36,738 nucleotides of DNA, from IMG/VR virus record IMGVR_UViG_3300020336_000022, positions 1 to 36,738 of that record, one strand, 5' to 3'. Every line of letters begins with the position of its first letter. Within the stretch, counting starts at the first letter, position 1. A program made the position numbers and the translations under genes. The notes beneath the pieces are model-generated. The model was not told the DNA's origin. It saw only the letters and a program-made list of their open reading frames with translations, and searched no databases. This DNA comes from a virus. Its lineage: Duplodnaviria; Caudoviricetes. This document shows, piece after piece, positions 2,657-33,473 of the stretch.

Positions 2657-2672
2657 TATATACCCCTTATAG
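2657..2672 (+). promoter_or_regulatory. Putative phage-RNAP promoter TATATACCCCTTATAG, copy 1, upstream of nrdJ
   Basis: Intergenic; exact copies at 32862-32877(+) and 32928-32943(-); ends in TATAG like T7-family promoters. Confidence 0.7.
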
Positions 2673-9909: not shown

Positions 9910-10664
9910 TGGCTGTTCAAGTTGCTCAAAGTATGAACAAAGCTAGAAGGGATCCTTTAAGATATCAAGCAGGTCCAATGTCTGGCAGACCACAAGACCC
10001 TACATTAGAACAACAAGCTGCTGCTATAGCAAAAAAGAAAGCTATGGCAAAAGGTGAAGAGTTTGCAATGCCCATGCTTGAAGACACTTGGACTAAAATT
10101 AAAACTGCATTCTCTCCCACATCTACAGCAACATCTGCTGCTCCAATTGCAGAAGGTGCAACAATGGCTGAGGTAGCTGCAGGTGCAGGTGGTAACGCTA
10201 TTGGTACTGTTGGTACTGGATTAACTGAAGCTGCTGCTGCTAATGCTGCTACAGGAGCTACTGGCTCAGGTATGATGGCTGGTCTTAGTGCTTTTGCACC
10301 GTATTTAATTGGTGGTTACTTTGGTGGTAAGGCTCTTGGTTTGTTTAATAAAGGTGGGTTTGTAAAAGGACCATTACATGCTGCTGGAGGATCAAGAGTT
10401 TTTAGAAGGGGATCACACTCATCTGGTTCTGGTTCTTCTTCTCCGAGTTATGCTAAAAAAGACTTAGTAGTGCCAGAGGAATTTAGAAAAAACAACATAC
10501 TTGAAGGTCTAATAAAATCAATGGAAGCTTTTGAAAAAAATCAAGATGTATCTTATAGACAATTTGGTGGTCCGTTATCTAAGGTTCGCTATAAGCAATC
10601 AGGTGGGCCTGTCAATGAAGAGATTGAAGTATCCTACGGTGGACCTTTATCTAAAGGAGTTTAA
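9909..10664 (+). CDS. Ejection protein with Ala/Gly-rich membrane-like segment and repeated xxGG/GPLS motifs
   Basis: TAATG coupling; no Cys; FNKGG, HAAGG, YRQFGGPLS, YKQSGGP, SYGGPLS. Confidence 0.6.
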   Translation: MAVQVAQSMNKARRDPLRYQAGPMSGRPQDPTLEQQAAAIAKKKAMAKGEEFAMPMLEDTWTKIKTAFSPTSTATSAAPIAEGATMAEVAAGAGGNAIGTVGTGLTEAAAANAATGATGSGMMAGLSAFAPYLIGGYFGGKALGLFNKGGFVKGPLHAAGGSRVFRRGSHSSGSGSSSPSYAKKDLVVPEEFRKNNILEGLIKSMEAFEKNQDVSYRQFGGPLSKVRYKQSGGPVNEEIEVSYGGPLSKGV

Positions 10665-10666
10665 CT

Positions 10667-15500: not shown

Positions 15501-15747
15501 TAAGATGATACGCATGGATCAAATGCAGTCTCTATATCAAAACATAGACCATCTTATCTATAGTCGAGGAAACAAGACTACAAGAAATGCGATGTTTGCT
15601 AAGGGTGTTCAAAACTGGCAATCCCTATCTCAAAGTGAAAGAGATGATTATGATAAAGGTGCTGAAAAAGATGTTGGCATAAATGGATTTTATAATTTTA
15701 TGCAAGACACTATGGCAGCTGTAAAAGCAAAAGAACCTAAAACATAA
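12517..15747 (+). CDS. Ejection protein with virion-associated GH24 lysozyme domain (~13000-13404)
   Basis: EGFRNEAYLDSAGVPTIGYG...LNPNQQAAVKSLLYNIG...GLENRRRDE; N-terminal GTDTVPAWLTPGEFV motif; no Cys; RBS AAGGAGG. Confidence 0.85.
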   Translation: MKLKSYTNKDRYGNMTSFEFYEDSNVPMMEGIPDHPGNPKGTDTVPAWLTPGEFVMNAEATRMFEPQIEQMNNAGRAMQTQQGGTIPEYAAHGGPVYMNQGGSWLDSLLGMFANKVLPEMPDATQGAIPPSDTSRDERVAALIEAAKTDGPTRPDPTMSNKMYMDFLKDKEGFRNEAYLDSAGVPTIGYGFTEGVQMGDTMDEKTANERLLKEMAKTDQDYNKLVTADLNPNQQAAVKSLLYNIGGPQFANSKARAALNAGDFESFKKEAAEFRMADGKVIPGLENRRRDELELFFKPYKADRPSVEDSPSAMIPAEDILARQQEVRRLQKDGTYEATSDVGDPFPPEPPATDPDAEMIAAQAATARDGTYNSGDNDMGGLGSDTPENAARARLLREQQRMQQGQVPPMTTPPPMDLEGGVADGVPPVDDRGALQKFGESGGLMGFLDRNIVQPYEEGQERKRILSDQDRMQQGQVPDFKEPPKVSTSFDKDNLPDNLVLNPETGKVEFKDPSQAPALGLQNAIDGPMGAQAKAFQLRTAKEDMQKAIDNGYGPGDAIFDNSYARVQELEGADEKLASLQDKKKLIFTDGELKVTDAEIEKKTIQAEKLVDLGLSDAAKKVEQEVKDLKDKKGRLETQSKELTVPPTDAPPKSDPSPFAKGGEDTPITDLTKTVTPKDIADNKQFPDDGSVSKNTTPEAATKAGEGAPPEQINKAESFLSGIFGDLFDKGELKRMAIMYVGGRMLGGSHSGSLNFAAKQYVKRVDAKVSAHDKYVKQLTKDGLYKPSSIAKYKRTKNLADLEKKDATYSATGGTSITKLIPVKGGGFKETTVVPVKNSITNEISYRAVDGTILPAEVIANARDARPELKDGTDEYYARRDRVYNQMEKSFAETRDNDGNFELDGKTKKYYTNVGPRKAAREFFAWAESVGQDPESTQSMDILTMAQEQMIEEAKGKKFRPGSLTPYLEYQMIREETTAPELFLLNPKEMAKGKPPKMIRMDQMQSLYQNIDHLIYSRGNKTTRNAMFAKGVQNWQSLSQSERDDYDKGAEKDVGINGFYNFMQDTMAAVKAKEPKT

Positions 15748-15758
15748 GGAGTATTATT

Positions 15759-18700
15759 ATGCTTGATGTATCGGATTATGAAAACCTATTAAGTGGTGAT
15801 TCAAATCAACTAGTAGGGGCAAAGAACAAGACCACGTTCTTGGATGCAGATACTATCCGTGAAGAAGGCAATGATCTAGATGTACGTTTCGGGGGTATAG
15901 ATGCTCCTGAAACGTATAAAACATGGCAAGGTTTAAGTGCTTCACAAGATGTTGGGGCAGTTCAAACTGCTGAACAGGTTCAAGCTTTAGCTAATCAACT
16001 TGGTTATACTGAAGTGCGTAGACGGTTTAATCCAGATGGTACTCCAGAAATGGATGCCACTAAGACTCGTCAAATGGGTGACCTTGTTCATCCAGAAACT
16101 GGTAAATCTTTTTCTCGTGAGCTTGCTATCAATGGTGTTGTAGATATTGCTGAGGGTTACGATCCAGGTAATATGTTATTAACATCTAAAAGGTTTAGTA
16201 ACTTTTTAAAAGGCCCTAGAGCAGATCAGACTGACCCTGATTATCAACCAAATGAGTTTGACAAAGCTCGTATGATGATACAAGAAGGTGTCAATGAAGA
16301 GCGTAGGTTTGCTCAACAATTTAAAAGAGCACAGAAGTTTTCTGGTGAGATTGGTATGCTTGATGAGCAGATCAAAATGGTTGAAGATGGACTATCTGAA
16401 ATGCGGGAAAGTGGAGAAGAGCCTACAGATCAAGACCTTGTAGGTCTCCAAATGCTTAAGAAACAAAGGGCAGCTATTAACGAAGCTGCTACACCTGAAC
16501 TTGATTACTATGATCGTGATGATGTAACTGGTCGTGCAAATAACCCTATGACTGTTGCTTGGGAAACTGGGTGGAACAGTGTGGCTCAATCCGCTTATGC
16601 TCTTGCAGATATGCTTGGAGAAAAAATAGATTGGGAAGCTGCAGAAAACTTTGGTGAAGCAGGTATGCGTAGGGCACAAGCCCGAATGGGTGACAATGGA
16701 AAGATTATTACAGACTACAAAGATGTAGATGGATTCCTGACAGCTGTTGAGTTCTTAGGTACTAATGCTGCAATGTCTTTACCATATATGGCTGCGTCTG
16801 GTGGTGCTGCTTTACTTTCAGGTGTTACTGGAGGGGCAAGTATTCTTTTACCAGTGTCTATGTATACTGGAAACACATGGGCAGAGATGGAAGGTGATAA
16901 TAAGAGTGCTACTGTTGCAATTGCAGCAGGTACAATTCAAGCTGTTTTAGATAGGGTTGGTATTCAATTAATATTTAGACAAGGTATTACTCCTAAAGCT
17001 ATGTATAAGGATGCTTTAACTGCATTGACATCTAAAGGTATGGGTAAAGAGGCTGCTGAAAAACTCCTTCTTACAGCAACACGTAAAGAACTAGCAGAGT
17101 TTGCTGGTGATGCAGCTAAAGTAGCTCGTCAACAAATTACAGGTAAGGCTATCTTTAAAGACCTTGCAACACGTGGGTTAATTGGTGGCACTGGTGAAGG
17201 TGTAACTGAAGCCATGCAAGAAGCTACTGCTTACCTTGGAGCAACCCTTGGTTCTGATAAGGTCTTTGATTATAATGAACTTACTGATCGAATGATTGCT
17301 GCTTCAATAGCTGGTACTTCTTTAGGTACAGCCTTCTCAGTTCCTGGAGCCGCAGTTAATGCTGGTGCTTGGGCTGATGTGGCAGTACGTCAGTTACCTG
17401 CAGAAGCCAAACGACTTTCTGAAGAAGGAGCACAGGCTGAAGCAGAGCGTACTCGGAATGGTCAAATAGCTTATAATGAAGCTAAAGCTGCTGAAGAATA
17501 TAGAAGAGCTAAAGATGAAGGGTATGATCCTAATAACCCCGATATGTTTACAGCACAAGAAATAGAAGCTATTGCAGAGCAAGCTCGTATAGATGGTAGT
17601 CGTGTTAAAACTATTGAAGAAAATCTACAAGATCTTGAAAAAGAAATAGCTGAACGTAAAGAAGCTGATCCTAATTATAAACCTGCAGAGTTAAATGATC
17701 GAACAGAAGCTCATAGAAAAGCAAAGTCTGAAAGAACTCTTGGGGAAACCATTGGTGAAATGTTTGCCTCGGCTCCTGCACTTTGGAGAAGGTCTATTGA
17801 TTATATTATTCCTGCTGAAGTAAAAAGAATATCTGCTTCTGCTAGAATACTAGCCGCTCAGTTTGGTGGTGGTCTTCAAAAGATATTTAGTAGTGCTGAT
17901 TTTGAAATGGCTAAACGTAATCGTGTTTCTGTATATAGAAATATGTTACAGAACCCTGCTGATTTTTGGAATGTTATGGGGAATGGTAGAGTTTTAAGTC
18001 AAAAAGAAATAGATACTTTAAGTGATGATCTTTACCGTAGACTTGAGCCTGTTATAAATGGTACAGGACCTGTGGATATCTCAGGTCTTAATCAAGCACA
18101 ACAGGCAGCTGTTACTGCTTTATCTCTTCAAATGGATACAGTTTCTGAGGCTATGTATGATGATCAAATAAAAGCAGGTGGTGAACTTAACCAACGTAAA
18201 CATTATCTTCATAGATTTAAAACACTAAACAAAGTTGCTGTTCAAAAGAACCGTAATGAGTTTGAAGCTTTATTAGTAAAGACATATCCGCAGATTAGTC
18301 CAGGAGATGCTAAGATTTTAGTAGATGAGATACTTAACTCTGATACTATTACTGACATTGATGAGGCTGGTGCTGTTGCAGGTATTGAGTTTTTAAAAGG
18401 ATTTGATGTCACTAAAGGTGGTATTGTTCCTGGATCCCATAGAAAAAATACACTTGGTATGTCTGAAAAGAAAGGCGATGATGGTGAACTTGTGTTCAAA
18501 GATTTTATGGAACGGGATATCTATAAAAACATACAGCACTCTATTAAGTCTGCTGCTAGGTTTACAGCACACAGAGATTACATTGGTAAGAATGGTGAGA
18601 AGGTTGCGTTTCTTTTAGATAAGATGCAAGCAGAGGGTGTTCCCGCTGCAGAGGTCAATCGAATTGCTAAGCTTATGCAGGATTATCTTAACGCTGAGTC

Positions 18701-20069
18701 AGGGAACTACAAACGTCCTACATCAGACATGGGTAAGATGCTTGTTGGTATCCAGAAAAACCTTATGTTCCTTACAACTATTGGAACACTAGGCATGGCT
18801 GCTGTGTCATCTCTTCCAGAACTTGCATTGTCCTCTCGTGCTTTAACTGCTGAACAGATCTTTAAAAGAAAAGGTTCATCTTCAAATGACACAAGCCTAC
18901 AAAACTTTGGTAAAGAACTAGCCTCTGGATTAAGTGCTGCAATAAGACAAACAGGTTCTGTTATAACACGTAGAGAACAAGCCTTGGGTAATATTGATCC
19001 ATCTACAGGTGTTCCTTTTGCTAGTAGATCTAGAGGTCAAGACTTACGTAGAGAGCTAGGTTATGATGCGTGGGAGCTTGGTGCAGCTACAGTGACTGGT
19101 GTTTCAGAAATGAATCCATCACATCAAAGATTCTATGAGATCTTCTTTAAGGCTACTGGTCTTACTGGCTTTACTAACATGACTCGTTCTATGAGAGCAG
19201 CTATATCTGCTGATTATATTTTTGATCATGTTAATATTATTGTTGATCAAAGAACAAGTGGTGAAGTAAAAACCAATGAGGTTCAACAGTCAGAAGAAGC
19301 TTTAAGAAACATTGGTATTAATGTTGATGACATGGCTATGTTATTTACTGAATCAAGAAAAAGAGATGCTGTGGGTGATACTAGAACACAAGAACAAATA
19401 CAAGCTGACGATAAACTTATGCAAGACAATTTAAGAATTGGATCTATGAACTTTATTGATGATGCTATAGCACTCCCAGGGGTGGCTAACAGACCATTGA
19501 TCTATCAAGACCCAAGGTTCTTTTTGTTTACACAGTTCCAGGGATTCATTGCTACATTTACAGCAAACCATATTCCTAAACTATGGGGTGAGTATGTAAA
19601 GCGTGGTACTCCAGCAATGAAGTATAATGCGTTTGCTATCATGGCTACTATGATTATGATGGGCTTTGCCTCTCAGTATCTAAAGGATCTCATTAAGTAT
19701 GGTGGTTTGGATGAAGACGAATACAAGACAGGTAAGAACCCTCACCTAGAGACTGAAGAGTATATCCAACGTGGTATCCGTTCATCAGGTCTACTTGGTG
19801 TTGGTGAGCGTGTGCTTGATCAGTTCTTCCCTATATACGAACAACGTTCTGGTAATGCTGGAGAGTGGTTGTGGAATACAACAACAGGTGAAGCACCTGC
19901 TACTGGTACATTAAAACGTATTGGTAGAGCAATCGGTAAGACAGCAACAGGAGACTTTGCTGGTGGTGCACAAGAAGGTAGTAGGTTAATCCCTGCCCTC
20001 GGTGTTACTGGTGGATTCTCAAGAGTTGGAGACTTTGCGCCAGACTCATGGAACTATAAAGGAGAATAA
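15759..20069 (+). CDS. Large ejection protein (T7 gp16-like position) with N-terminal staphylococcal-nuclease-like domain
   Basis: LDADTI, VRFGGIDAPE, DxxxTR, RELAINGV at the N-terminus; amphipathic Gly/Ala helices; C-terminal FTQFQGF...LKDLIK...GLLG; no Cys in 1436 aa. Confidence 0.75.
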   Translation: MLDVSDYENLLSGDSNQLVGAKNKTTFLDADTIREEGNDLDVRFGGIDAPETYKTWQGLSASQDVGAVQTAEQVQALANQLGYTEVRRRFNPDGTPEMDATKTRQMGDLVHPETGKSFSRELAINGVVDIAEGYDPGNMLLTSKRFSNFLKGPRADQTDPDYQPNEFDKARMMIQEGVNEERRFAQQFKRAQKFSGEIGMLDEQIKMVEDGLSEMRESGEEPTDQDLVGLQMLKKQRAAINEAATPELDYYDRDDVTGRANNPMTVAWETGWNSVAQSAYALADMLGEKIDWEAAENFGEAGMRRAQARMGDNGKIITDYKDVDGFLTAVEFLGTNAAMSLPYMAASGGAALLSGVTGGASILLPVSMYTGNTWAEMEGDNKSATVAIAAGTIQAVLDRVGIQLIFRQGITPKAMYKDALTALTSKGMGKEAAEKLLLTATRKELAEFAGDAAKVARQQITGKAIFKDLATRGLIGGTGEGVTEAMQEATAYLGATLGSDKVFDYNELTDRMIAASIAGTSLGTAFSVPGAAVNAGAWADVAVRQLPAEAKRLSEEGAQAEAERTRNGQIAYNEAKAAEEYRRAKDEGYDPNNPDMFTAQEIEAIAEQARIDGSRVKTIEENLQDLEKEIAERKEADPNYKPAELNDRTEAHRKAKSERTLGETIGEMFASAPALWRRSIDYIIPAEVKRISASARILAAQFGGGLQKIFSSADFEMAKRNRVSVYRNMLQNPADFWNVMGNGRVLSQKEIDTLSDDLYRRLEPVINGTGPVDISGLNQAQQAAVTALSLQMDTVSEAMYDDQIKAGGELNQRKHYLHRFKTLNKVAVQKNRNEFEALLVKTYPQISPGDAKILVDEILNSDTITDIDEAGAVAGIEFLKGFDVTKGGIVPGSHRKNTLGMSEKKGDDGELVFKDFMERDIYKNIQHSIKSAARFTAHRDYIGKNGEKVAFLLDKMQAEGVPAAEVNRIAKLMQDYLNAESGNYKRPTSDMGKMLVGIQKNLMFLTTIGTLGMAAVSSLPELALSSRALTAEQIFKRKGSSSNDTSLQNFGKELASGLSAAIRQTGSVITRREQALGNIDPSTGVPFASRSRGQDLRRELGYDAWELGAATVTGVSEMNPSHQRFYEIFFKATGLTGFTNMTRSMRAAISADYIFDHVNIIVDQRTSGEVKTNEVQQSEEALRNIGINVDDMAMLFTESRKRDAVGDTRTQEQIQADDKLMQDNLRIGSMNFIDDAIALPGVANRPLIYQDPRFFLFTQFQGFIATFTANHIPKLWGEYVKRGTPAMKYNAFAIMATMIMMGFASQYLKDLIKYGGLDEDEYKTGKNPHLETEEYIQRGIRSSGLLGVGERVLDQFFPIYEQRSGNAGEWLWNTTTGEAPATGTLKRIGRAIGKTATGDFAGGAQEGSRLIPALGVTGGFSRVGDFAPDSWNYKGE

Positions 20070-20070
20070 T

Positions 20071-23000
20071 ATGGCAGGTAAATCTAATGTAACAGGCCTA
20101 GATACTGGTACAGTACTACCTTCAGAACAATTAGAGTTGGCTTTAGGATTTGAAAAGGTGTTAGCGGGGGATACAGCCCCGCCAGCAGCCCCTGAAGCCC
20201 CTGAGGTTACTACCCCACCAGTAGAACCTGTAGCGCCTGTCACAGAAGCTCCTGTGGAGACTGTTCCAGAAGCCTTGCTTAGTACGGTTGACGAAACAGC
20301 GGGGGTTGTAGAAGAGGTGACTGAGGGTGAGCCTGAGGTGTTTGGTCCTCCAGATCCTAGGTTTACAAAACCCTCTATGGCTCAAGAGGCTAAAGGAGAA
20401 AGCGGCCCTAGCACATACTGGTCAGCGTTTGAAGCACAATCAGACCCTGATGCTGCTGGATCTTCTAGTGCTATGCCTAACGGTGACATTGAGGGGAGAG
20501 CAGCAAGACTAGCTGAAGATGTTGCATCAGGTGCTATATACCTTGGCGGTACTACAGCTGCTGCAGATCAAGACAATAAACTTAACTCTTTGTTAAACAA
20601 TACCAACGCTCTTGACAATGGTAATAATGACTCTGGTAAACCAAGAATGACCCCATTGTTTGCTAAAGTATTAACGTATGTCACTGAAGATGCCTTGTCG
20701 CAAACTTCTTTTGGTAAGAATGAAGACGGTCAGTTTGATCCGATGGATCAGGTTACTGATGATCAACTCATGGGCACTGGCGCTTTCTCTAAAGCTGATG
20801 GTAACCGTAGGCTTGGTCGAGAAATACACAGGGCACATCAAAGAATTATTAATAAGCAGCAAAAGAAACCCACTGATGCTTATACTGATCTGTCTCCTGA
20901 TGATGCTTTCTTACTGGGTGATATAGCAAAAGAATTATACTACCAAGGGATGAACCGACAGTACGGTGAGAATGTTTTTCTTAATAGACAAACACCAGAC
21001 TCTACTGTTAAAGGTGAACAAGTTGTGTTTGAAGTAACCGACACTGGTGCTTCTCTTTTAAGGCAGGGTAATACACTTCGTAAAAAACTACTACCCAAAG
21101 ACCATGTTCGCCCATTAAAGACACCACCAGTAGATGGTATGTTGGGTGGTGAGATAGGTAGAATAACAAGAAGTATAACACAGCGAGTCTTTGTTCCTGG
21201 GGATGCTGTAAATGCTGCAGAACTTAATGAGGCTATGAGAAACTATTCTCAAGTAGCTCATGTGGTTGACCCTCAACGTCTAAAGATTTTGTTAGCTACT
21301 GCTATGGCAGCATTAAGTTCTTCAAGTAATCCTTATAGATCCATCAATCATATTGGTGAAGATAAAATGAACGAGTTTGTTGCTAGACAAAAGATTGCTC
21401 AGTCTCAAGGTCGTAGAATTATCCCTGATCCAAATGACAGTATGAGGGCGATTGAGGATGATTTAGCTCAAGCGTTGTACGGTATATGCCTTGACCGAAA
21501 AGGTGCAAACTATCTTACATTTTATTTGCAAGGTGCAACAGGTCGTATTGCTGTACAACAAACAAACTTTGATCCGACAACTAAAAAGTCTGTTCGGTTT
21601 GTTACTCGTAGCGCAACCCCTACAATGATTAACAAAGGCTCTAGGTTTGATAAAGCTCTTAGACAAATGTATGCTATGGCTTTAGTAAAGGATGCAGATG
21701 CCTTAGTTCCTTCGGCTAGAGAAAAAGCTCTTACAAGTGCAGAAGAATCACTTTACAACAAAGGTGTTAGACTTCGTACTGCTTTAGCTGCAATCTCTGA
21801 TAGTCAAGTTGAAAAAGTAGCTGATGCTATTGCTGCTGGTATGCCTTTGAGTGATCCTAATTTTCCACAGATGCCAACATTACAACTTGATCCTAATAAT
21901 GAATCAGATGCAACTCTTATGGCAGAGATTCAAAAGAAAGGTGAAGATGGTCAAGCTTACATTGATGGGCTTATAGACTTTGCTAATTACAAAGAGGCTA
22001 TGGATGCAAATGAAGGAGCAGGTAGACCATACCATACATACTTTAATGCGTACATAGATGGTAAAACTAATGGTCTTGCTGGTAATGGTATGCAGCTTGG
22101 TGATATGGACACTGCCAAAAGAACTGGTGTAATACGTAGTGGGACCAGTCCATTCTTTCTTGATGATGATCAAGACATACGGGATGTACTTGAAAATACC
22201 CTTATAAGACTATCAGCTAATGAAGAGTATAAGGCTTTTTCAAGAAGTGGGTGGCCTGAAGTATATGAAATAGCTAAGATTGTGTATGGTAATAGGGGTT
22301 TAAATAAAACCACATCTATGACATTTGGTTATGGAAAAAATGTTGAAGGTTTTAAACAAGACATTGAAGAGTTTATGTTGATTATGCAGGGTGAGGGGAC
22401 CCCTGAAGGTCAACGCCTTAATGAGCTAATGTCAATATTTGATAGTAAAAATTCAAGTAAGGGAGATTTAATTGACGCTATACATTCACATTATGACAAT
22501 GCGTTAAGAGAAGTACTTGGTGAAAACACTATGCCATCTCGTAATATTATGAGAGGTGCTGCGTTCTTACACTCAATAGCAAATGAGTTGTTTACTATTA
22601 ATGGGCCAACAGGTTCCAAGCTTAACATGGGTGGGATGATGTCCACTGGTGCTGCTATAGGAAAAGCTACATCAATAAAAATCTTTGTTAATAAAAAAGG
22701 TAAGTATAATATTTGGTACGGGTCTGGTGAAAACGCTAGTCTTAGTAACCTAGCTCTTAGACCTTTTCAAGATAAAGAAGGAAGAGTTTATCAAACAGTT
22801 GAACATGCTTATCAAACCCTTAAGTCTGGTAAGTTTGATGAAGAAACTTATAACAAACCTTGGAAGGCAGGTGTAAAATTTAAAGGAAAACGTGTTAATG
22901 AAGAAATAAGTATTGGTCTTATGACTAAACTTATACAAGCAAGTCTTGATCAGAACCCTGATGCTATGACAGCGTTACAAGAAACTCGTGGAAAAGAAAT

Positions 23001-23928
23001 AACACACAATGAAGATAATACTATCTGGAATAAAGAGTTTCCTAGAATCCTTATGCAAATTAGAGATGGTTCTCCTTTTTATCAAAAGCAAACAACACCA
23101 AAGTCTCAAGTGTACGGTGAAGAGGCTACGTCTGCAGCCCCAAAGTTTAGGACTGACCCTATAACAGGTGAACAAACAACTGAAGTAGGTGGTACATCTT
23201 GGGGTGCTGCAATACCTATCCCTGTTCAATCAATTGATGCTGCAACAGTAGCAAGATTAGCATCTGATAAGGGTGGTTATTGGAAAGACATTAAAAGAAA
23301 GTCACAGAATCCTAAGCAACAACCGTATGTGTTTCCTATCTATGATGCATTTAAAATGGATGCTGCTTCGTATGATGCTGTTCTTAAAGATGTAAACAAA
23401 GCATGGGTAGATATTAATTTTGAGTGGTCTTACCTAAAGCAAACACAGAACTCTTTAAAGCAATTGAGACAATCCTTAAATGAAAAGTTTAAGAATCCAA
23501 CTCAAGTGTTGCAAGGTAATGAAAAAGCTATGATGAATTATCTTTTTTCAAATTATATAACTAAGTCAGGTAACCCCGTGTTAAATATTAACAATAAACT
23601 GGGACAAGTTATGTACCCTGTTCCTAAAGGGGATGATATTTTTGGAGAAGTTAAATCCTTGCAATCAGATATGAAAAAACATGGGTTTACTAAATTTACT
23701 GTAATTGGTGGTGGAGGTAATGAAATTATTAATCCAAACACAGAATTAACTGTAGAAGATTTAAAAATATTTATAGATGCTCTTGAAAGAAAAATAAATC
23801 TTGATCGTAGATTAAACAGTTTGATATCTAAAACTGATGGATTGAGGTCTAAACTAGAGTCAAAGATTATAGCTAACATGAATAGCAATAACCCTGACTT
23901 AGCAGTCCTTCAATACTATTCACATTAA
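20071..23928 (+). CDS. Putative virion-encapsidated single-subunit RNA polymerase (N4 vRNAP-like, ~1285 aa) with NADAR-like insertion
   Basis: ATG 20071 after AAGGAG; ATGR motif, motif A YIDGKTNG, motif B RGLNKTTSMTFGYG (Rx3Kx7YG), IPVQSIDA, motif C PIYDAF, all in canonical order. Confidence 0.85.
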   Translation: MAGKSNVTGLDTGTVLPSEQLELALGFEKVLAGDTAPPAAPEAPEVTTPPVEPVAPVTEAPVETVPEALLSTVDETAGVVEEVTEGEPEVFGPPDPRFTKPSMAQEAKGESGPSTYWSAFEAQSDPDAAGSSSAMPNGDIEGRAARLAEDVASGAIYLGGTTAAADQDNKLNSLLNNTNALDNGNNDSGKPRMTPLFAKVLTYVTEDALSQTSFGKNEDGQFDPMDQVTDDQLMGTGAFSKADGNRRLGREIHRAHQRIINKQQKKPTDAYTDLSPDDAFLLGDIAKELYYQGMNRQYGENVFLNRQTPDSTVKGEQVVFEVTDTGASLLRQGNTLRKKLLPKDHVRPLKTPPVDGMLGGEIGRITRSITQRVFVPGDAVNAAELNEAMRNYSQVAHVVDPQRLKILLATAMAALSSSSNPYRSINHIGEDKMNEFVARQKIAQSQGRRIIPDPNDSMRAIEDDLAQALYGICLDRKGANYLTFYLQGATGRIAVQQTNFDPTTKKSVRFVTRSATPTMINKGSRFDKALRQMYAMALVKDADALVPSAREKALTSAEESLYNKGVRLRTALAAISDSQVEKVADAIAAGMPLSDPNFPQMPTLQLDPNNESDATLMAEIQKKGEDGQAYIDGLIDFANYKEAMDANEGAGRPYHTYFNAYIDGKTNGLAGNGMQLGDMDTAKRTGVIRSGTSPFFLDDDQDIRDVLENTLIRLSANEEYKAFSRSGWPEVYEIAKIVYGNRGLNKTTSMTFGYGKNVEGFKQDIEEFMLIMQGEGTPEGQRLNELMSIFDSKNSSKGDLIDAIHSHYDNALREVLGENTMPSRNIMRGAAFLHSIANELFTINGPTGSKLNMGGMMSTGAAIGKATSIKIFVNKKGKYNIWYGSGENASLSNLALRPFQDKEGRVYQTVEHAYQTLKSGKFDEETYNKPWKAGVKFKGKRVNEEISIGLMTKLIQASLDQNPDAMTALQETRGKEITHNEDNTIWNKEFPRILMQIRDGSPFYQKQTTPKSQVYGEEATSAAPKFRTDPITGEQTTEVGGTSWGAAIPIPVQSIDAATVARLASDKGGYWKDIKRKSQNPKQQPYVFPIYDAFKMDAASYDAVLKDVNKAWVDINFEWSYLKQTQNSLKQLRQSLNEKFKNPTQVLQGNEKAMMNYLFSNYITKSGNPVLNINNKLGQVMYPVPKGDDIFGEVKSLQSDMKKHGFTKFTVIGGGGNEIINPNTELTVEDLKIFIDALERKINLDRRLNSLISKTDGLRSKLESKIIANMNSNNPDLAVLQYYSH
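22705..23070 (+). other. NADAR (YbiA-like) domain inserted within the RNAP
   Basis: LSNLALRPF...YQTVEHAYQTLK...LMTKLIQASLDQNP...LQET...ITH..D..W..EFPRILMQIRD. Confidence 0.8.
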
Positions 23929-23979
23929 AAAAAATACCCCTACTAGAATCCAATCAAGGAAACTAGTAGGGGCTTTTTT
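23927..23979. terminator. Bidirectional intrinsic terminator between the two arms
   Basis: A-tract, CCCCTACTAG (23937-46) / CTAGTAGGGG (23963-72) stem, T-tract; between convergent genes. Confidence 0.9.
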
Positions 23980-24226
23980 ATTTAAGCATACCGTTTTTAG
24001 CCAGTAGCTCTCTGATGTCACGCTCAGCATCTTTCTTTATCTGTGCAGCTGTGTCTGGTTCCATACCACGTTCAACTGCTTTGTCATAGTTATACTGTAG
24101 CATGTCTTCGTTAATCTTATTTGAGTATGCAGACTCTGGGGATAACCCAAAGGTTTCTACATACTCCATGTCATCTACTGGTGCTCCACGTAGAGCCAAG
24201 TAGTTGTACGATTTCTTATCGCTCAT
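23978..24226 (-). CDS. Hypothetical protein (82 aa)
   Basis: Start MSDKKSY at 24226 after AAGGAG. Confidence 0.75.
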   Translation of the reverse strand: MSDKKSYNYLALRGAPVDDMEYVETFGLSPESAYSNKINEDMLQYNYDKAVERGMEPDTAAQIKKDAERDIRELLAKNGMLK

Positions 24227-24236
24227 TGGTTTCTCC

Positions 24237-26555
24237 TTAGGCAAAGAAGTAATCAGACTCATAGATCTGTGTTACGTCTAGGTTGCCTAGCTCTGGTTGC
24301 TCTACGTCAAGGTTAGTAGCATCAGTGATGATGTTTTGTTGTATCAAGTCGTAGTAATTATCTTTATCATACATATCGATAAAGCTTTGTTTAGTCCTCG
24401 CTAGTAGTGCTTCGACATCACATGCATGAGTGCTAAAGGAATCATGTACTGCTCCGAAATCACCATTCCATTCCTCAATAACCAATGCCATATGACTGGC
24501 ATCCTGACTGTGAATGTAGTTAGGGCTGACACCACACATAAATCCGCGAATGTCTGGGGTCTTCGTAGGTACTCTTGCCACATGGTTCACTCCTTTGTGT
24601 CCTTTAGACTCAGACTTATAGCCACTTATAGTACCTCTACATTTTCGTGTAGCTGTAGTATAGTTCTGGTAGATTACTTTAAACCCTGAGGGTGTTACCC
24701 ATGAGAGGTCGCTTCTACCATTGCCATGTATCAGTTTACTTTTGTATGATCTAAGAAGTACTGTGAGTGTGTTGAGGTGTTCAATCTCCTCATCAGTTTT
24801 ATCTTTCTTTGTGTACAATTCTTTCTGATCCTTGACCAGTTGTTTGTATTCTGGTCCAGCAGGTTCATCTTGATCATTGTACTTTAAGTATTCACCTATC
24901 TCATACTGTGCTAGTCTTTGCAGGTATGCCATAGTATGCAGGGGTCCTGGACATACAAGGTTGATTGCTTTGATTAGCAGCTTAGCTAGTTTATCACAAT
25001 CATCTTGTGTTATCCCATACTCTATGTGAAAGTCCTCTGCTTTACAATCAAAGAACATATTCTCAGCGATCTTCTTTGCACCTGCTGAGTATGCTCTTGT
25101 CATACTACCACGTTTAGATATAGCTTTCCTAATATGTTTCATTGGCATCTGATCAAGGATGTCTTTAAGTCTCTCATCAGTTGTCAAATGATATAACTGT
25201 TTAGCAGTCTGAACATAGAAGTCATGTTGTATTTCTACTGGTATTAGCCCTACAAGCCTCCCTGTCTGGCTGTCTTTAGAAATAGCACCTAGATGCTGCC
25301 AACCATTGTTAGACCCGTCTATGGGCACTGGAAGGTGACTAACGTGGATTCTATTATCTTTGACTGCTCTTTGGTAATCAAACCACTCAAAGCAACAGGA
25401 TAGGAATGACACAGATTTCTCTGCTATATCTGTTACAATACCTTGCCTACCCATTTCGACAATAACTTCCATGTTATCGTTAGTCCACCTTACCCTGTCC
25501 TCAAGGGTAAACTTATCTACGCTTATAGACTCTAGCTTTTCTTCTTCTAGGTATCTTGCATAGTCAGCTTCACACCAGTCAGGTATCTCATCTATGTTAT
25601 AACTCTGGTTGAATGTATTGGCTGTGTGTACAGCTAACCAGAAGAGACCGTCCTCTGTCATAGGTTTACCCCTAGCAAAGGTCATCATACCTCTGGCTAG
25701 ATCAGACCCTTGATAGTTTAGGAAGGACTCTGAGTAGTATAACCTACCCCTATAGTCTGCTTGCATGAACTGATAGAAGACATCGTGATCATAGAGCAGC
25801 TTAGCTTTAGTAGTAATGAAACCCCATTCTACCAGCTTGCTTCTACGTTTCATTTCTTTAGCATCATTATCATCTATTGGTGTTGACGACACAAATGCAT
25901 CTTTGTTTTCTATAAGAGTATCATACACACGCTGGTTGATCCTCCATCCAGTGCGTTGTAGTTTGTTTACTGAAGTAACCCAAGGGGTTCCAATCATAGG
26001 TTCAAACCTTGCGTTGTCCTCTTCTGTCCACTCTTTGATTACAGGTTCACCGTCCTGTTGTATGATCTTTGATATTCTATCTGGTCTTTCTAACACAGTA
26101 TGTGTCAAAGATATCCTCATCATTGCCTCTGGTATATCGGCAAGGTCTATCCATTTAGCTGTAGCTGATACAATATAGCTAGTGTCCCTTGTCTTCGGGT
26201 AGTATATGTCTATGTATCCACAGTTATAGAACGCTTCTATAAAGAGATCACCCAACCTCACATGCATGTTCCAGGGTAACCCAGGGGGTTCCCTTTTGAT
26301 TACACGTGCTATACGTTGACCTATTGCTGTAGATACAGCTGTCAACTGTGCAGTCCCTGCAGGACTATCTGAGGTATCGTAGGTGAATCTCATTTGTATT
26401 GTTTGGAAAGCCACGTTTATTAGTCGTGGCATCTCCTCTTTATATTCTTTATACAATCTCAGAAGTACACCACCTGAGTTTGCCTTAGGGTTATTTGGAT
26501 TAACCCTTGAGACCTTATCAATTAGGTACTCTGAGATGTTATCGAATGGATTCAT
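24237..26555 (-). CDS. T7-like single-subunit DNA-directed RNA polymerase
   Basis: DYRGRLY, PVPIDGSNNGWQH (motif A), KRGSMTRAYS (motif B), WVTPSGF, SPNYIHSQDASH, AVHDSF (motif C). Confidence 0.97.
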   Translation of the reverse strand: MNPFDNISEYLIDKVSRVNPNNPKANSGGVLLRLYKEYKEEMPRLINVAFQTIQMRFTYDTSDSPAGTAQLTAVSTAIGQRIARVIKREPPGLPWNMHVRLGDLFIEAFYNCGYIDIYYPKTRDTSYIVSATAKWIDLADIPEAMMRISLTHTVLERPDRISKIIQQDGEPVIKEWTEEDNARFEPMIGTPWVTSVNKLQRTGWRINQRVYDTLIENKDAFVSSTPIDDNDAKEMKRRSKLVEWGFITTKAKLLYDHDVFYQFMQADYRGRLYYSESFLNYQGSDLARGMMTFARGKPMTEDGLFWLAVHTANTFNQSYNIDEIPDWCEADYARYLEEEKLESISVDKFTLEDRVRWTNDNMEVIVEMGRQGIVTDIAEKSVSFLSCCFEWFDYQRAVKDNRIHVSHLPVPIDGSNNGWQHLGAISKDSQTGRLVGLIPVEIQHDFYVQTAKQLYHLTTDERLKDILDQMPMKHIRKAISKRGSMTRAYSAGAKKIAENMFFDCKAEDFHIEYGITQDDCDKLAKLLIKAINLVCPGPLHTMAYLQRLAQYEIGEYLKYNDQDEPAGPEYKQLVKDQKELYTKKDKTDEEIEHLNTLTVLLRSYKSKLIHGNGRSDLSWVTPSGFKVIYQNYTTATRKCRGTISGYKSESKGHKGVNHVARVPTKTPDIRGFMCGVSPNYIHSQDASHMALVIEEWNGDFGAVHDSFSTHACDVEALLARTKQSFIDMYDKDNYYDLIQQNIITDATNLDVEQPELGNLDVTQIYESDYFFA

Positions 26556-26573
26556 ACAATCCTCTTTCTGTTA

Positions 26574-28205
26574 TTATATTGTAAAGTAATCGTCAAATCC
26601 ACCAGATGCTATTAGCCTAGTGGTTTTGTTGTCGTATGTAGCGGATCCTGCAGGTCCAGTAAGCCCTGTGAATCTGGACTTGAGTACCTTAAACTTAATT
26701 GTGTTTCGTTCTGACTCTGACTCTGCAACGAGGTTCCTTGAAAAGGCGATGATGTCGAACGAGATCTGCTTGATCGAACCACTGCCTTTGATATCATCGA
26801 TAGATGCGATGTTCCCTTCCTCAAAACTCTTACCTCCTTGTGCTTTACGTAGGTGACTGATAAGACCCAGCCATACATTGTGTTTCTTAACAACCTTAAG
26901 CAGGTCAGACATTACCTTGTCTATCGCTTCGTTACCAGATAACCCTTCAGAGCCTTCCGATACCGCGATAGTAATGTGGTCAAGAACGAGGTACTTGCAA
27001 CCCATAAGGGCCATGTATTCAATCTTGTCGATAAGAGATGCGTCCCCAACGGAGCCTTGGTGATCCAAGAGAACCAGTCGCTCGTCACCAAACACAGCTT
27101 CGTATCCTGATCGCAATTCACTTTCACTAGTTGGTGGAGGATCCATGATGTTGCGTTTAAGTTGCATTGAGATAAACTTTTCGGCTGTATCTCCAACACT
27201 TTCTTCCAAACTAATGAGTCCAACCTTATCACTTGTCTTAGCAAGCAGGTCAAGAATAATCTCTTTAATGACAGTAGACTTACCACTACCAGTGCCAGAG
27301 GTAAACAAAGTAATCTCACCATATCTTATCCCCTTGAGTTTTTCATTGAGTCCTTGAAGACAATCAGGGTAAGGAACCGACTCAACATTCTGGCGTTCCT
27401 TGAGCTTTTCCCAGACTGCTTCGCCCATGATAATTCCTGCAGGGGACCACGTTTTAGCGCCCCATATACTCTCCACGACAGCATCGGGTCCATGCTTGAG
27501 GAAGAGTTCTGATGGATCTTTGCACCCTTTAAGTGACGCAACCTTACATCTCCCCGTACCCACGATACGTGCCGCTTTCTCCACAGCTTGCGATCCAGCT
27601 TCGTCTGAGTCGAACATGAGTATGACAGACTCATACTTAGATACCCACTCCCGCTGCGCCAGAAGTGTATTGATTCCTGAAGCACTGGGAAGCGATACAA
27701 CAGGGTAGACCCTTCCATACTTTTGTTTATATGCCTGAGCAACAGCGAGTGCATCCAACTCCCCTTCGGTGATGACGAGCATCTTGCTACCCACCGACTG
27801 TTCCTGACCGAATAGTTCCACATCTTTAAAATCTCCATGAACACTAAATGTTTTAGGTAGTTTTCGTTCTTTGTATGCTACGATCTTACCGTTCTTTGTG
27901 TATGGGTAGAAGTGGGATTGAGGTAGTCCTTCTGGGGTTACACTCATTTTTACATTAAAGTAATCTACTACTTCTTTAGAGATACCACGAGAAGAAATAC
28001 CATAGCTACGATAAGAATCGATATCGGAGAATCTAGTAAGCTCATTAAAGGTGGCGGGTTCATAACTATCCATTTCTGTTTCTACTTTCTTTGATTTGCC
28101 ACAGCTGAAGCAGTGTCCTACTCCATCACTGTACGTTGTAAATGCATCGGAGCTACCACATCCAGGGAATGGGCAGGGTCCTCTAGTATATCTTTTATCA
28201 TCCAT
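26574..28205 (-). CDS. Primase-helicase (T7 gp4-like)
   Basis: Zn finger CPFPGCGSSD...CFSC, TOPRIM ITEGELDA / FDSD, Walker A SGTGSGKST, LVLDH, KGSGSIKQ. Confidence 0.96.
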   Translation of the reverse strand: MDDKRYTRGPCPFPGCGSSDAFTTYSDGVGHCFSCGKSKKVETEMDSYEPATFNELTRFSDIDSYRSYGISSRGISKEVVDYFNVKMSVTPEGLPQSHFYPYTKNGKIVAYKERKLPKTFSVHGDFKDVELFGQEQSVGSKMLVITEGELDALAVAQAYKQKYGRVYPVVSLPSASGINTLLAQREWVSKYESVILMFDSDEAGSQAVEKAARIVGTGRCKVASLKGCKDPSELFLKHGPDAVVESIWGAKTWSPAGIIMGEAVWEKLKERQNVESVPYPDCLQGLNEKLKGIRYGEITLFTSGTGSGKSTVIKEIILDLLAKTSDKVGLISLEESVGDTAEKFISMQLKRNIMDPPPTSESELRSGYEAVFGDERLVLLDHQGSVGDASLIDKIEYMALMGCKYLVLDHITIAVSEGSEGLSGNEAIDKVMSDLLKVVKKHNVWLGLISHLRKAQGGKSFEEGNIASIDDIKGSGSIKQISFDIIAFSRNLVAESESERNTIKFKVLKSRFTGLTGPAGSATYDNKTTRLIASGGFDDYFTI

Positions 28206-28224
28206 CTAGTTCCATCTTTCTTCT

Positions 28225-28650
28225 TTAGCTTGACGATTTAGTTTCCTCTTGTAACTCGCTTCTCGTTTCTTGTTGAGTCTCTTCTGCTTGATTATCTTCA
28301 TACTCTCGTACTCTGATGTCAAGGAACTCTCCTCCTCGTTTAACGATTCGCTTTTCAAGTTCGATGTTGTAAACTTTATTGTCATTGAAATCCTCATACA
28401 CTCCTTGATATGTATCTAGTATTGGTTTAATTACGTTATCCAGATCTGCTCCTCTATTAGATAGACCTGCTGTAATGTTAAAGGTAACTTGACCAGCCCC
28501 GAAAGGCCAGTCAGTTCCTATAAGCTCATCACGAATCTGGTTCTGATACTCCAGATAATCCGCTGACTTGAACGTTGTCTTCCCCCTTCGGTTCCACATC
28601 TTGTTCGCACTCAGGGGTTTGATTGAGAAGTAATGACTCATTTGGTTCAT
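28225..28650 (-). CDS. rusA: RusA-like Holliday junction resolvase
   Basis: PLSANKMW and DLDNVIKPILD...ND catalytic pattern. Confidence 0.75.
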   Translation of the reverse strand: MNQMSHYFSIKPLSANKMWNRRGKTTFKSADYLEYQNQIRDELIGTDWPFGAGQVTFNITAGLSNRGADLDNVIKPILDTYQGVYEDFNDNKVYNIELEKRIVKRGGEFLDIRVREYEDNQAEETQQETRSELQEETKSSS

Positions 28651-29335
28651 CCTTACTCACCTCCTTTAGTTCATCCCATGTAGTCAGCATAGTAAGTAGT
28701 TTACGACTAAGCCAAGGGTCACCTGCATTGTTTTCTTTCCAGGCTTTCTCAACAGCTGCCCATCGTTGACCCATAGGTATACCGTCTAATAGTTTAGAGG
28801 CAGTCTTTGGACCTATACCGTGTATCCCTGGTATGTTATCACTGTTGTCACCAGTCAAGCATTGTAACATTAAGTTTAGATCTGCTTGATCATCGTTAAC
28901 AAACTCATGGGTTTTCTTAGTATAGTTGTAGTGATGACCTGGGATTTGTTTAAGGTCTTTATCAATACCACAGATAACAAAGTCTAGTTCTAATTCACGA
29001 GCTTCGTAAGCCCATATACATACTAGATCATCTGCTTCCATACCATCTGCTTCTATTCCACCCCACTTTTCTTTCATATAGTTATGACCGTAGTTAAGGG
29101 ACTCTTTTATTTCCTCTTTTAAGGACGGTCTGGTGCCCTTGTAGGGGGCATAGAGGTCTTTCCGGTAGTTCCCCCTGCCTTTGAGGGCTACACGGCACTC
29201 CTGAGGCCCTGAGAAGGCGTATGCGATACATTGATTTACAGTAGTATCGATTACTTTTCTGATCTCTGTTTTATCAGAGTTGCTGTAAGCAGCCCTGAAG
29301 TAGATAGAGTCAGCGTCAATTAAGGCTAATGCCAT
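28529..29335 (-). CDS. 5'-3' exonuclease (T7 gp6 / FEN-like)
   Basis: LIDADS, YKGTR, EADD, DKDLKQIPG, GDNSDNIPGIHGIGPKTA. Confidence 0.93.
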   Translation of the reverse strand: MALALIDADSIYFRAAYSNSDKTEIRKVIDTTVNQCIAYAFSGPQECRVALKGRGNYRKDLYAPYKGTRPSLKEEIKESLNYGHNYMKEKWGGIEADGMEADDLVCIWAYEARELELDFVICGIDKDLKQIPGHHYNYTKKTHEFVNDDQADLNLMLQCLTGDNSDNIPGIHGIGPKTASKLLDGIPMGQRWAAVEKAWKENNAGDPWLSRKLLTMLTTWDELKEVSKDEPNESLLLNQTPECEQDVEPKGEDNVQVSGLSGVSEPDS

Positions 29336-29347
29336 TACGTTTTCCTT

Positions 29348-29599
29348 TTATCTATAGACAACATCGATACCCCATTCCTTTACTTTATTTTCTAAAGGGT
29401 AGGGGTCCCAGATGTCTCTTTCATATTGCACTGCTGCGAGAAGATGGAGAATGATGTATCCTTTTGAAGTATAGTAGTAACGCAATACATCAAACCATTC
29501 TCTCGGTTCAACACCGTCTGGTTTTGGGTGGAAGGATACGATGTACCCTGGGTATTCAATTGATTGTTCATAGGGTACTTCCTTTATATTAGTGGACAT
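29348..29599 (-). CDS. Hypothetical protein (~83 aa)
   Basis: Likely start MSTNIKEV overlapping the end of the DNA polymerase gene; the ORF-track extension lies inside the polymerase. Confidence 0.65.
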   Translation of the reverse strand: MSTNIKEVPYEQSIEYPGYIVSFHPKPDGVEPREWFDVLRYYYTSKGYIILHLLAAVQYERDIWDPYPLENKVKEWGIDVVYR

Positions 29600-31415
29600 C
29601 TGCGTAGCTAGTTCCGATAACATAGTCACCACCTTCCATACAGGTAACACCAAACATTTCTGGACCTTTCTTGAAAGATTCCTGAAGTATCTCACCGACA
29701 CGATCTGCATCATCAGGATGTGACACATAAGCAATCTCATCGTGATAGAACAAGCGTGGCTCTGCACGTAGCTCTTCTTCGTCAATCTTATTCATAGCAT
29801 AAGACAATGCAGACTTACAGGTAATACCTTCAGCAGTTTGCAGCAAGTAGTTAAGTGCTTGGTATTCACCAGACACAAACACAGGTCTACCATCAAGGCC
29901 AGGGAACCAACCCTCACCTGTTGCATATTGTGTGCTGCGCCATACTTCACCTAGTTTATCTTTAAGTTCTTTCAACCCTTTGATTCCTTTGGCAAAGTCT
30001 TCACGTGACTTCTTACCAGCATTAGCATTAGACTTACCAGTTAGGATAGAACCTAACTTAGCATCACCAGCACCAAACAAATAAGCATAGAGATAGTTCT
30101 TTGCTACAGGTCTAGAACAACCAAGTGCGTCTGCATTACGTTGGTGTTGATCACCATAGATTACCTCATTAGTAAACTCATCGTTGTTTACATAGTGACA
30201 CAGACCACGTAGCTGGTTGCCAGAACTGTCTGCACCTACAACTTTCCAGTCTTCATCAGGTATGAATAGCTCACGTAACTCTTTACCCCAGGGTGCATTG
30301 ACTCCTGGAAGATTCACGATTACTTCATGTCTGCAACGGAATGTTTGAGTACCAATAGTCCACATGTTGCCATGTATACGTCCAGCTTCTAGGGTCTCAA
30401 GCCAGCCTTTAATTACAGAGCTACGGTTACGTAGAGTGTAATACTCACTGATCATTTTACCCATATCACCTAGTTTCTCTAGGGATGTATCAGTAATCTT
30501 TGGTCCTACGGTTACCCATTCACGACCAATCTTCTTTCGGTTGTACTCATCTGGCTTCCAACCTACAGTTAGTAACCAGTCCTTTACAAGTTCCATAGAT
30601 CCTAGTGTGATCTGTTCTACTGTGAACCGTTGGAACTCTTTGTTTACTGGATGCACATGTGTGTCTTCTGACTTTACTTCTTTCTCATAGAAATCTGAAA
30701 GCAAACGTGCAGTTACAGCAGTGTAGTCACCATTCTTTTTGTATTTAGGTGTTTTAGGTGTTTTATCAATGTATACTTTATGCGTACCCAACTGAGGATG
30801 TATTACTTTTTCTATCTCATCCATCCTAGTTTGCATAAGTTTAAGGTTCTTTACTGCCTTGACTCTATCAAACTTCCAACCACGGGTCTTTACACGGGCA
30901 TTGAACTTTGCAGTATCATGCTCAATTAGTAAACCTTCCTTGATTGTTGGACGTTTAGCAGCAATTCGTTTGTATTCTTCCATCAAGTGATTAAACACAT
31001 CTACGTTTAGCATTACATCTTGTACACAATAACGTAGCATTTCTCTAGAGTATCCATCCCACTCATCAAATTCAATCTTTGAGTTGTTAAGGTGTTCACC
31101 CCAACCTTTTAGGCCATGCTTGTGGGGTCTTTTGTATTGTAATACTTGAGACATAACCCAAGTGTCATATACTTTCTTATTATTTAGTTTCAAACTATAT
31201 AGTTTTTCCATAACTAAATTATCAAAGCCAATAATGTTATGACCAATTAAGACTTCTGCGTTGTTTAGTACTGCACAACCATCATCCATTCCTGGAAGAG
31301 CGTCATCGTAATCACTAAACTTGTATGTTGTACCACTGTCTAGGTTGTATGCTACAAGACACCAGACTTTAGTTGCATCAAAACCATCTGTTTCAATATC
31401 ATACACTAATTTCAT
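29589..31415 (-). CDS. Family A DNA polymerase with 3'-5' exonuclease
   Basis: DIETDG, GHNIIGFD, YCVQDV (Exo I-III); motif A DSSGNQLR; motif B RPVAKNYLYAYLFG; motif C YHDE. Confidence 0.96.
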   Translation of the reverse strand: MKLVYDIETDGFDATKVWCLVAYNLDSGTTYKFSDYDDALPGMDDGCAVLNNAEVLIGHNIIGFDNLVMEKLYSLKLNNKKVYDTWVMSQVLQYKRPHKHGLKGWGEHLNNSKIEFDEWDGYSREMLRYCVQDVMLNVDVFNHLMEEYKRIAAKRPTIKEGLLIEHDTAKFNARVKTRGWKFDRVKAVKNLKLMQTRMDEIEKVIHPQLGTHKVYIDKTPKTPKYKKNGDYTAVTARLLSDFYEKEVKSEDTHVHPVNKEFQRFTVEQITLGSMELVKDWLLTVGWKPDEYNRKKIGREWVTVGPKITDTSLEKLGDMGKMISEYYTLRNRSSVIKGWLETLEAGRIHGNMWTIGTQTFRCRHEVIVNLPGVNAPWGKELRELFIPDEDWKVVGADSSGNQLRGLCHYVNNDEFTNEVIYGDQHQRNADALGCSRPVAKNYLYAYLFGAGDAKLGSILTGKSNANAGKKSREDFAKGIKGLKELKDKLGEVWRSTQYATGEGWFPGLDGRPVFVSGEYQALNYLLQTAEGITCKSALSYAMNKIDEEELRAEPRLFYHDEIAYVSHPDDADRVGEILQESFKKGPEMFGVTCMEGGDYVIGTSYADVH

Positions 31416-32855: not shown

Positions 32856-32861
32856 AGTGGT

Positions 32862-32877
32862 TATATACCCCTTATAG
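32862..32877 (+). promoter_or_regulatory. Putative phage-RNAP promoter, copy 2, pointing at the + strand terS-like gene
   Basis: Exact TATATACCCCTTATAG. Confidence 0.7.
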
Positions 32878-32927
32878 AATTAATACCTTATTGATGACGA
32901 GGCTTGTCCTCGGCATAAAAGATATAC

Positions 32928-32943
32928 CTATAAGGGGTATATA
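32928..32943 (-). promoter_or_regulatory. Putative phage-RNAP promoter, copy 3, pointing at the replication operon
   Basis: CTATAAGGGGTATATA is the exact reverse complement of the motif. Confidence 0.7.
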
Positions 32944-32961
32944 GAATTTATGGAGAGAACA

Positions 32962-33428: not shown

Positions 33429-33473
33429 AAAAGAGTCCCTAGATACACATTTAAGTGTACCTAGGGGCTTTTT
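33429..33473. terminator. Bidirectional intrinsic terminator
   Basis: AAAAG..CCCTAG-a-TACAC / GTGTA-c-CTAGGG..CTTTTT between convergent genes. Confidence 0.85.

Follow-up and report, generated by a model that had tools for sequence, protein, structure and literature searches.

The 36,738-nucleotide stretch analysed here (the window) is the Caudoviricetes record IMGVR_UViG_3300020336_000022 of IMG/VR, a linear virus record from a marine phage, and it encodes two different single-subunit RNA polymerases (RNAPs) tail to tail. The first (polymerase 1, 20071..23928, plus strand) is a compact protein of 1285 amino acids (aa) with one cysteine, related to the virion RNAP (vRNAP) of phage N4, and is a candidate virion RNAP. 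The second (RNAP2, 24237..26555, minus strand) is an unsplit T7-family RNAP of 772 aa with ten cysteines. Polymerase 1 is the final gene in the structural arm, which occupies the plus strand up to 23928; this arm and the minus-strand arm converge, and N4 gp50 has a corresponding position. RNAP2 is the final large gene in the replication operon on the minus strand, which also carries small early genes. The scheme that we favour, with moderate confidence, is that the compact polymerase is packaged, injected and starts transcription at template-strand hairpins, and that the T7-type enzyme then transcribes from its own promoter. The genes, folds, catalytic residues, tail-to-tail order, cysteine depletion and motif classes described below are direct results, and the packaging, the injection, the hairpin promoter and the order of the cascade are inferences.

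Searches of Pfam and NCBIfam with the whole of polymerase 1 gave no match, no RNAP was recovered when PDB sequences were searched with the protein and with its alignments, and PHROGs gave only a weak RNAP match (E 1.4e-4). With a limit of E 0.001, its family comprises 261 proteins and, at 50% identity, 387 cluster representatives, and it diverges very fast (about 24–45% identity across the family). An earlier note on this DNA had read TGR, IDGKTNG, Rx3Kx7YG, QSIDA and IYDAF, with both catalytic Asp residues, in the last plus-strand gene, and all of them were found there: the TGR motif (R492, 21544-46), motif A YIDGKTNG (D663, 22051..22074), motif B R742-x3-K746-x7-Y754-G755 (22294..22335), QSIDA (D1056) and motif C IYDAF (D1092, 23338..23352). 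Residue invariance was counted on the 209 full-length homologues collected, and R492, D663, G664, K746, Y754, D1056 and D1092 are invariant in 209/209. The modelling check that the same note had proposed came out in favour of a Pol A fold. When aa 200-1285 were modelled with AlphaFold (pLDDT 81, pTM 0.80), the model matched T7 RNAP (Z 27.4, 537 residues aligned), mitochondrial RNAP (Z 25.4) and N4 mini-vRNAP (Z 23.3, with the longest alignments, 687-692 residues). In the ESM Atlas, the clusters given for polymerase 1 are RNA_pol and N4 vRNAP-domain ones, at 0.93-0.96, and the protein ends in QYYxH (158/209 homologues) at the place where T7 RNAP ends. Because of the complete invariance and the model matches, the motifs are not chance occurrences. 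These results indicate that polymerase 1 is, by modelled fold and invariant residues, a Pol A-family single-subunit RNAP with predicted activity. What had been overlooked in this gene is an insert of about 130 aa, which is described below. The very fast divergence and the presence of this insert in the specificity-loop hairpin would fit a dead polymerase retained as a structural ejection protein. However, no catalytic or nucleotide-binding residue varies among the 209 homologues, which makes this explanation very improbable.

The core of polymerase 1 appears to be nearer to N4 vRNAP than it is to the T7-like enzymes, as had been proposed from N4 motifs, and the affinity is supported but modest. 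The motifs behind that proposal are correct: N4 vRNAP has EADGVTNG as motif A, which aligns to YIDGKTNG, and IFDG, with an aromatic residue before the motif C Asp. The profiles compared were built from 26 members of the family, from the cores of 9 Schitoviridae vRNAPs and from 15 T7-like RNAPs, 6 of these from the RNAP2 clade. With hhalign, the match to the N4 vRNAP group (E 1.6e-18, score 174, 766 columns) was stronger than that to the T7-like group (E 1.7e-12, score 120), and the N4 group was favoured in 12/12 equal-size resamplings. The profile alignment sets GRMQMLGKYNPQSAKLVR of N4 against GRIAVQQTNFDPTTKKSVR of polymerase 1, so that N4 K437 and R440 fall on K506 and R509, both of which are invariant in alignment A1. 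In N4 vRNAP, K437 and R440 are described as binding the initiating nucleotide (PMC4496689). Two results point the other way and keep the N4 affinity modest: the structural Z-scores lean to T7 (27 versus 23 for N4), and of 41 proteins scanned, 26 match the T7-type phrog_414 and only 3 the virion-RNAP phrog_2206. The identity between polymerase 1 and N4 vRNAP is about 11%.

N4 gp50 (Schitoviridae; mini-vRNAP aa 998-2103, PDB 2PO4 and 3C46) shares with polymerase 1 the Pol A single-subunit fold, the DGxTNG motif A, an aromatic residue preceding the Asp of motif C, the equivalents of K437 and R440, cysteine depletion, a place at the end of a late arm that meets the opposite-strand arm head-on, and template-strand hairpin promoters, which in the window are candidates. 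In contrast, gp50 has 3500 aa, whereas polymerase 1 has 1285 aa (about 1080-1540 in the family), ends at the T7-like foot without the N- or C-terminal domain of N4, and is preceded by three or four separate ejection-type genes. No form of about 3500 aa with N- and C-terminal domains was found among the 209 homologues, the longest of which has 1537 aa, and none was found fused among proteins of 2350-5000 aa, although the latter is weak evidence. The stand-alone, mini-vRNAP-sized enzyme of the earlier note thus stands. A read-through fusion of polymerase 1 with the upstream protein was also considered and rejected, since the frames differ in 23/30 loci. An HExxH metallopeptidase-like domain, described as almost always fused to N4-like vRNAPs (PMC5512222), is present in only 3/209 homologues and absent from P0001, the cluster representative for the window. 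Two of the homologues, P0152 and P0157, have an HExxH peptidase-like insert after the palm, which recalls the peptidase domain of N4 gp50, and in P0152 it is followed by a NADAR-like domain. Polymerase 1 is not a strict member of the N4 gp50 family.

RNAP2 matches PF00940 (E 8e-56) and has intact DYRGR, motif A, motif B, PNYIHSQDA and HDSF. It had been described as a conventional T7-like RNAP of 772 aa. The T7-family assignment, the single chain and the convergence hold, but the protein is not conventional: its identity is about 22–27% to the listed Autographiviridae RNAPs and 38% to gp30 of Roseobacter phage CRP-7, with which it forms its own clade in the tree (support 100/100). N4 gp16 could not be placed in this tree (branch 6.4). 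The family alignment found 65 IMG/VR loci, near-copies included, and in 65/65 RNAP2 lies downstream on the opposite strand and is matched as one continuous stretch. The unsplit second RNAP expected from the window, as opposed to the heterodimer of N4 (gp15 and gp16), is therefore general in this set. It is a single ORF (open reading frame) in 9/10 genomes checked for stops, with one TAA in G014. The T7-like replication genes that had been noted were also found, namely primase/helicase, RusA-like nuclease, 5'-3' exonuclease and DNA polymerase A (26574..31415, minus strand). A distinct two-RNAP transcription strategy holds as an inference. Contigs from RNA runs cover both polymerase genes and carry no start, strand or level information.

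The two polymerases are exchanged separately between lineages. L002 and G006 have RNAP2s that are 99% identical and first polymerases that are 36% identical, so the module has been swapped, and the large neighbour of polymerase 1 travels with it in such exchanges. In L010, L011, L016, L022, L043 and L033, the whole ejection module and the first polymerase are exchanged and the replication arms are near-identical. DSS3_VP1 does not have the two-RNAP architecture in the stretch seen.

The position and composition of polymerase 1 suggest that it is packaged in the virion and injected. Its ATG at 20071 (AAGGAG at 20059-64) lies 1 base behind the stop of a gene for a cysteine-free 1436-aa protein (15759..20069, plus strand), which is a virion structural protein by PHROG and a likely ejection protein. 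In 30/30 loci examined, the start of polymerase 1 abuts the stop of this large neighbour (gap -44 to +30). Further upstream are a cysteine-free 1076-aa protein with a lysozyme domain (12517..15747, plus strand), also a likely ejection protein, and the head of the likely ejection cluster (9909..12505, plus strand), which is formed by a 251-aa cysteine-free ORF and a 612-aa Hint-domain ORF. Polymerase 1 has one cysteine, and the 251-, 1076- and 1436-aa neighbours have none, as is the case for N4 gp50, gp51 and gp52. The other cytoplasmic enzymes counted have 6-12 cysteines. Among the polymerase 1 homologues, 189/209 have no cysteine and 20/209 have one. Injection and encapsidation have been assigned to N4 gp50's N-terminal domain and C-terminal domain (PMC5512222); the family has neither domain, which weighs against this reading. 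The late-arm position alone is likewise no proof of packaging, and these two points would suit an active non-virion second polymerase that is made late, e.g. for packaging or concatemer processing. We regard this as improbable in view of the cysteine depletion across the homologues and of the cysteine-free neighbour that polymerase 1 abuts and with which it is exchanged.

The 612-aa protein of this cluster (10667-12505, plus strand) has its Hint domain at aa 337-477; the domain ends in HN followed by Gly, and is therefore probably self-cleaving rather than splicing. A 57-base direct repeat (88%) occurs in the C-terminal part of the 612-aa gene (12365-12421) and in the middle of the 1076-aa gene (14473-14529), and possibly encodes a shared packaging or processing peptide.

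Two classes of promoter-like signal were identified. The first is the 16-mer TATATACCCCTTATAG, which occurs exactly at three places, each facing neighbouring genes: in the structural arm at 2657..2672 (plus strand), at 32862..32877 (plus strand) facing a 138-aa gene at 32950, and at 32928..32943 (minus strand) facing the replication operon. A copy with 2 mismatches precedes the DNA polymerase gene (31535-31550). At up to 3 mismatches, 4 matches were found versus 0.46 expected. The 16-mer ends in TATAG, as the T7 promoter does. It is unchanged in the mosaics L010 and L016, in which RNAP2 is 91% and 85% and the first polymerase 39% and 36% identical to those of the window, whereas G003 and G004, in which RNAP2 is 58% and 46% identical, have different repeated motifs in its place. 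Because the motif follows RNAP2 identity and not first-polymerase identity across the mosaics, it was assigned to RNAP2. Copies of the promoter motifs precede terminase, portal or tail-arm genes in G001, G003 and G004. The 16-mer is thus most likely an RNAP2 promoter-like signal serving both replication and late genes.

The second class consists of short hairpins in the early regions of relatives, with 1-4 per genome in the stretches examined. They are located ahead of the first early gene, of an SSB-like gene and of the replication operon. The window has a single copy, a co-varying hairpin upstream of the replication operon (32894..32916, minus strand, sense loop ACAAG), which sits between the two facing 16-mers and is a candidate promoter of the virion RNAP. 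In 16 aligned copies, each of the 9 pairs shows changes in both arms of the stem, and no pair has them in a single arm, although the copies were chosen by loop pattern, which inflates pairing, and are related to one another. The 39 internal mismatches in 35 distinct copies, from which the hairpins of CRP-7 were excluded, are 33 C.T and 6 A.C on the sense strand with no G.T. On the template strand they are G.A or G.T, and tandem G.A pairs are stable. This bias favours folding of the template DNA strand as in N4, whose promoters are described as acting through a stable template-strand hairpin (PMC4496689). In G011, the loop on the template strand is C-GAA-G, which resembles an early hairpin of N4. 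On these grounds, the hairpin is probably a promoter of polymerase 1, an assignment that we make with some reservation.

Several observations weigh against this assignment. The identical hairpin is found in the window and in G006, whose first polymerases are 36% identical, and more generally the loop is kept across first polymerases that are 30–41% identical. Hairpins often closely follow an RNAP2 promoter, and for several copies the distance downstream of it is just 10-15 bases. The two early hairpins of CRP-7 contain sense-strand G.T and fold better on the sense strand, which is RNA-like. These points would be explained if polymerase 1 is injected but transcribes the early genes from other signals, and the hairpins serve RNA processing or antitermination or bind a replication or packaging protein. 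An RNA stem is expected to gather G.T, however, and none was seen on the sense strand among the 39 mismatches; copies also occur far from any RNAP2 promoter, and in the complete genome G003 the copies (4/4) are on the early/replication strand only. Moreover, G010 and G011 have an RNAP2 promoter in common (RNAP2 76% identical) yet differ in the loop. We therefore consider that other signals are unlikely, though they deserve some weight, and retain the hairpin as the candidate promoter of polymerase 1.

Other signals in the early regions were also searched for. In the region 19000-36738, sigma-70-like sites are at the level of chance (54 versus 48.7 expected), and strong ones number 0-2 per early region in four genomes. 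These counts bear on the explanation that polymerase 1 is injected as a genome-pulling motor or primer maker and that the host RNAP transcribes the early genes as in T7. The location of polymerase 1 within the ejection cluster agrees with such a role, and a simple sigma-70 scan may miss alphaproteobacterial promoters; but besides the chance-level counts, one hairpin copy precedes the replication operon, at a site deep within the genome that would be expected of a gene-expression signal. This explanation is rather unlikely. An Rfam search of the early region of G001 gave no match, and motifs in G001 resembling the N4 stem (CGCTTC) were dropped as probable chance. A contig from run X3 has other letters at window positions 32879-32928, between the 16-mers, and they form a different small hairpin. 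In L071 (about 11560-11680 and 12250-12280), L084 and L088, a repeated intergenic motif has a stem around CTGAGCATG followed by AACTGCT, and is possibly an RNA pseudoknot; it gave no match in Rfam.

Taking the promoter classes together with the favoured scheme, polymerase 1 would be packaged with the ejection proteins and injected into the cell, where it would start transcription at template-strand DNA hairpins. The early gene cluster is closed by a terminator-like hairpin upstream of the replication operon (33437..33466), and a hairpin promoter at 32894-32916 would therefore explain the first synthesis of RNAP2, which could then amplify itself and transcribe the replication and virion genes from the 16-mer. 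Since the late genes carry RNAP2-type promoters, host RNAP may be dispensable at every stage, whereas N4 late genes are described as using host RNAP (PMC4496689). The first step likely works like that of N4, with hairpin promoters of its own, and the later programme looks T7-like. A caveat for the scheme as a whole is that the record represents about 64% of a genome, and part of the genome, including the head genes, lies outside the window; in relatives the head genes match CRP-7.

The closest cultured phage, CRP-7 (MK613349), probably has the same RNAP pair. Its genes follow the same order, with DNA polymerase, exonuclease, primase, gp30, small genes and the converging cysteine-free gp33-gp35. 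In gp33, the blocks DARQSNAG, GLYG, QGGD and IHDA are degenerate versions of the motifs, and the last three are kept in 7/7 relatives checked. The identity of gp33 to polymerase 1 is about 16%, and the Lys and Arg of motif B seem swapped. A pairwise hidden Markov model comparison gave E 9e-8, and the profile-profile comparison gave E 0.09 over 480 collinear columns. All nine loci with gp33 relatives (9/9) also carry a converging RNAP. On the other side, gp33 as a query found only itself, and a search of the CRP-7 genome with alignment A2 found no match. Homology of gp33 to polymerase 1 is likely, although the scores are weak. The gp33 protein is annotated as hypothetical, and the available text of PMC6918029 names one RNAP for CRP-7.

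T7 and phiKMV-like Autographiviridae resemble the window in the T7-family RNAP2, the promoter-like repeat ending in TATAG and the T7-like replication genes, and in KP34 the RNAP gene also follows the replication genes. These phages have one RNAP and co-oriented genes, whereas the window has two RNAPs and converging arms. For StenR_269, a vRNAP has been proposed solely because the protein is large and has no cysteine, according to the available part of PMC10747016. No description of a compact N4-related RNAP paired with an unsplit T7-type RNAP was found in the literature searched, in which subscription papers are thinly covered.

The insert in polymerase 1 is a NADAR/YbiA-like domain (about aa 872-1005, 22684..23085, plus strand), which is optional in the population. 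From alignment and secondary structure, it appears to be inserted at the tip of the beta-hairpin corresponding to the specificity loop. The polymerase of L002, which is 88% identical, has no insert, and a contig from run X1 has 47 letters in its place. An insert occurs at the same site in 8/209 homologues and in G002, whose polymerase is 36% identical, and P0152 and P0209 have a NADAR-like domain at a different, C-terminal site. In tblastn searches against cultured phages, only the NADAR-like stretch of polymerase 1 was matched. The match of the insert to Pfam NADAR (PF08719) has E 9e-4 and is under the gathering score; among its stand-alone homologues, 7/55 carry PF08719, and their profile matches YbiA (2B3W, E 0.002). 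The Glu of YbiA aligns to a Thr beside an invariant His. A single-sequence fold of the insert (pLDDT 44) was not used.

NADARs are described as removing ADP-ribose from guanine (PMC11125620) and as often packaged in virions (PMC9503650). By analogy, the insert might be an anti-defence passenger, which is a guess that we rate as rather doubtful. Work on phage NADARs and on polyvalent virion proteins describes injected proteins, N4-like RNAPs among them, that have domains for ADP-ribose processing or of the HExxH peptidase-like type attached to them (PMC5512222, PMC9503650, PMC11125620, PMC11825919). The polymerase 1 family differs in that the NADAR-like domain lies within the polymerase and at two separate sites, an arrangement not found in the available portions of PMC5512222, PMC9503650 and PMC11125620.

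A broader picture, which we put forward tentatively, is that of a widespread but overlooked marine podophage clade, with CRP-7 as its cultured member, which might run its whole cycle without host RNAP: from template-strand hairpins, a free-standing virion RNAP would transcribe the early genes and the gene for the T7-type RNAP. This virion RNAP would be an unfused counterpart of N4 vRNAP, and a swappable platform that on at least two occasions gained a domain for removing ADP-ribose. If nature has a polymerase as small as mini-vRNAP, apart from the ejection proteins, it would become testable whether the N4 giant is a fusion, and also how packaging works without the extra domains of N4. With predicted promoters for both enzymes and a probable cultured member, the cascade can be tested directly. 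In addition, the family missed by Pfam could be a source of new single-chain RNAPs whose promoters are single-stranded hairpins.

Between the converging arms lies a two-way terminator-like hairpin (23930..23982, z -7.0 and -6.7). It is followed by a 94-aa ORF (23978..24262, minus strand), which was unassigned to a family by domain search. Most of the 65 loci have a match to this ORF downstream of RNAP2, and it is possibly a cofactor or inhibitor. In the minus-strand arm, an HNH endonuclease gene (31399-31725, minus strand) precedes the DNA polymerase gene, and a 64-aa ORF (31847-32041, minus strand) is absent from the contigs of three runs. The 138-aa gene (32950-33366, plus strand) is the sole plus-strand gene within this arm and has its own 16-mer. 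Domain-family and PHROG scans gave no family match for it, and a label of small-terminase-like comes from appearance only. It is conserved in relatives, and in some of them (G010, G012) it is co-oriented with the early genes. In the structural arm, a ribonucleotide reductase gene (2706-4451, plus strand) lies behind the 16-mer, and the same placement is seen in CRP-7 and G003.

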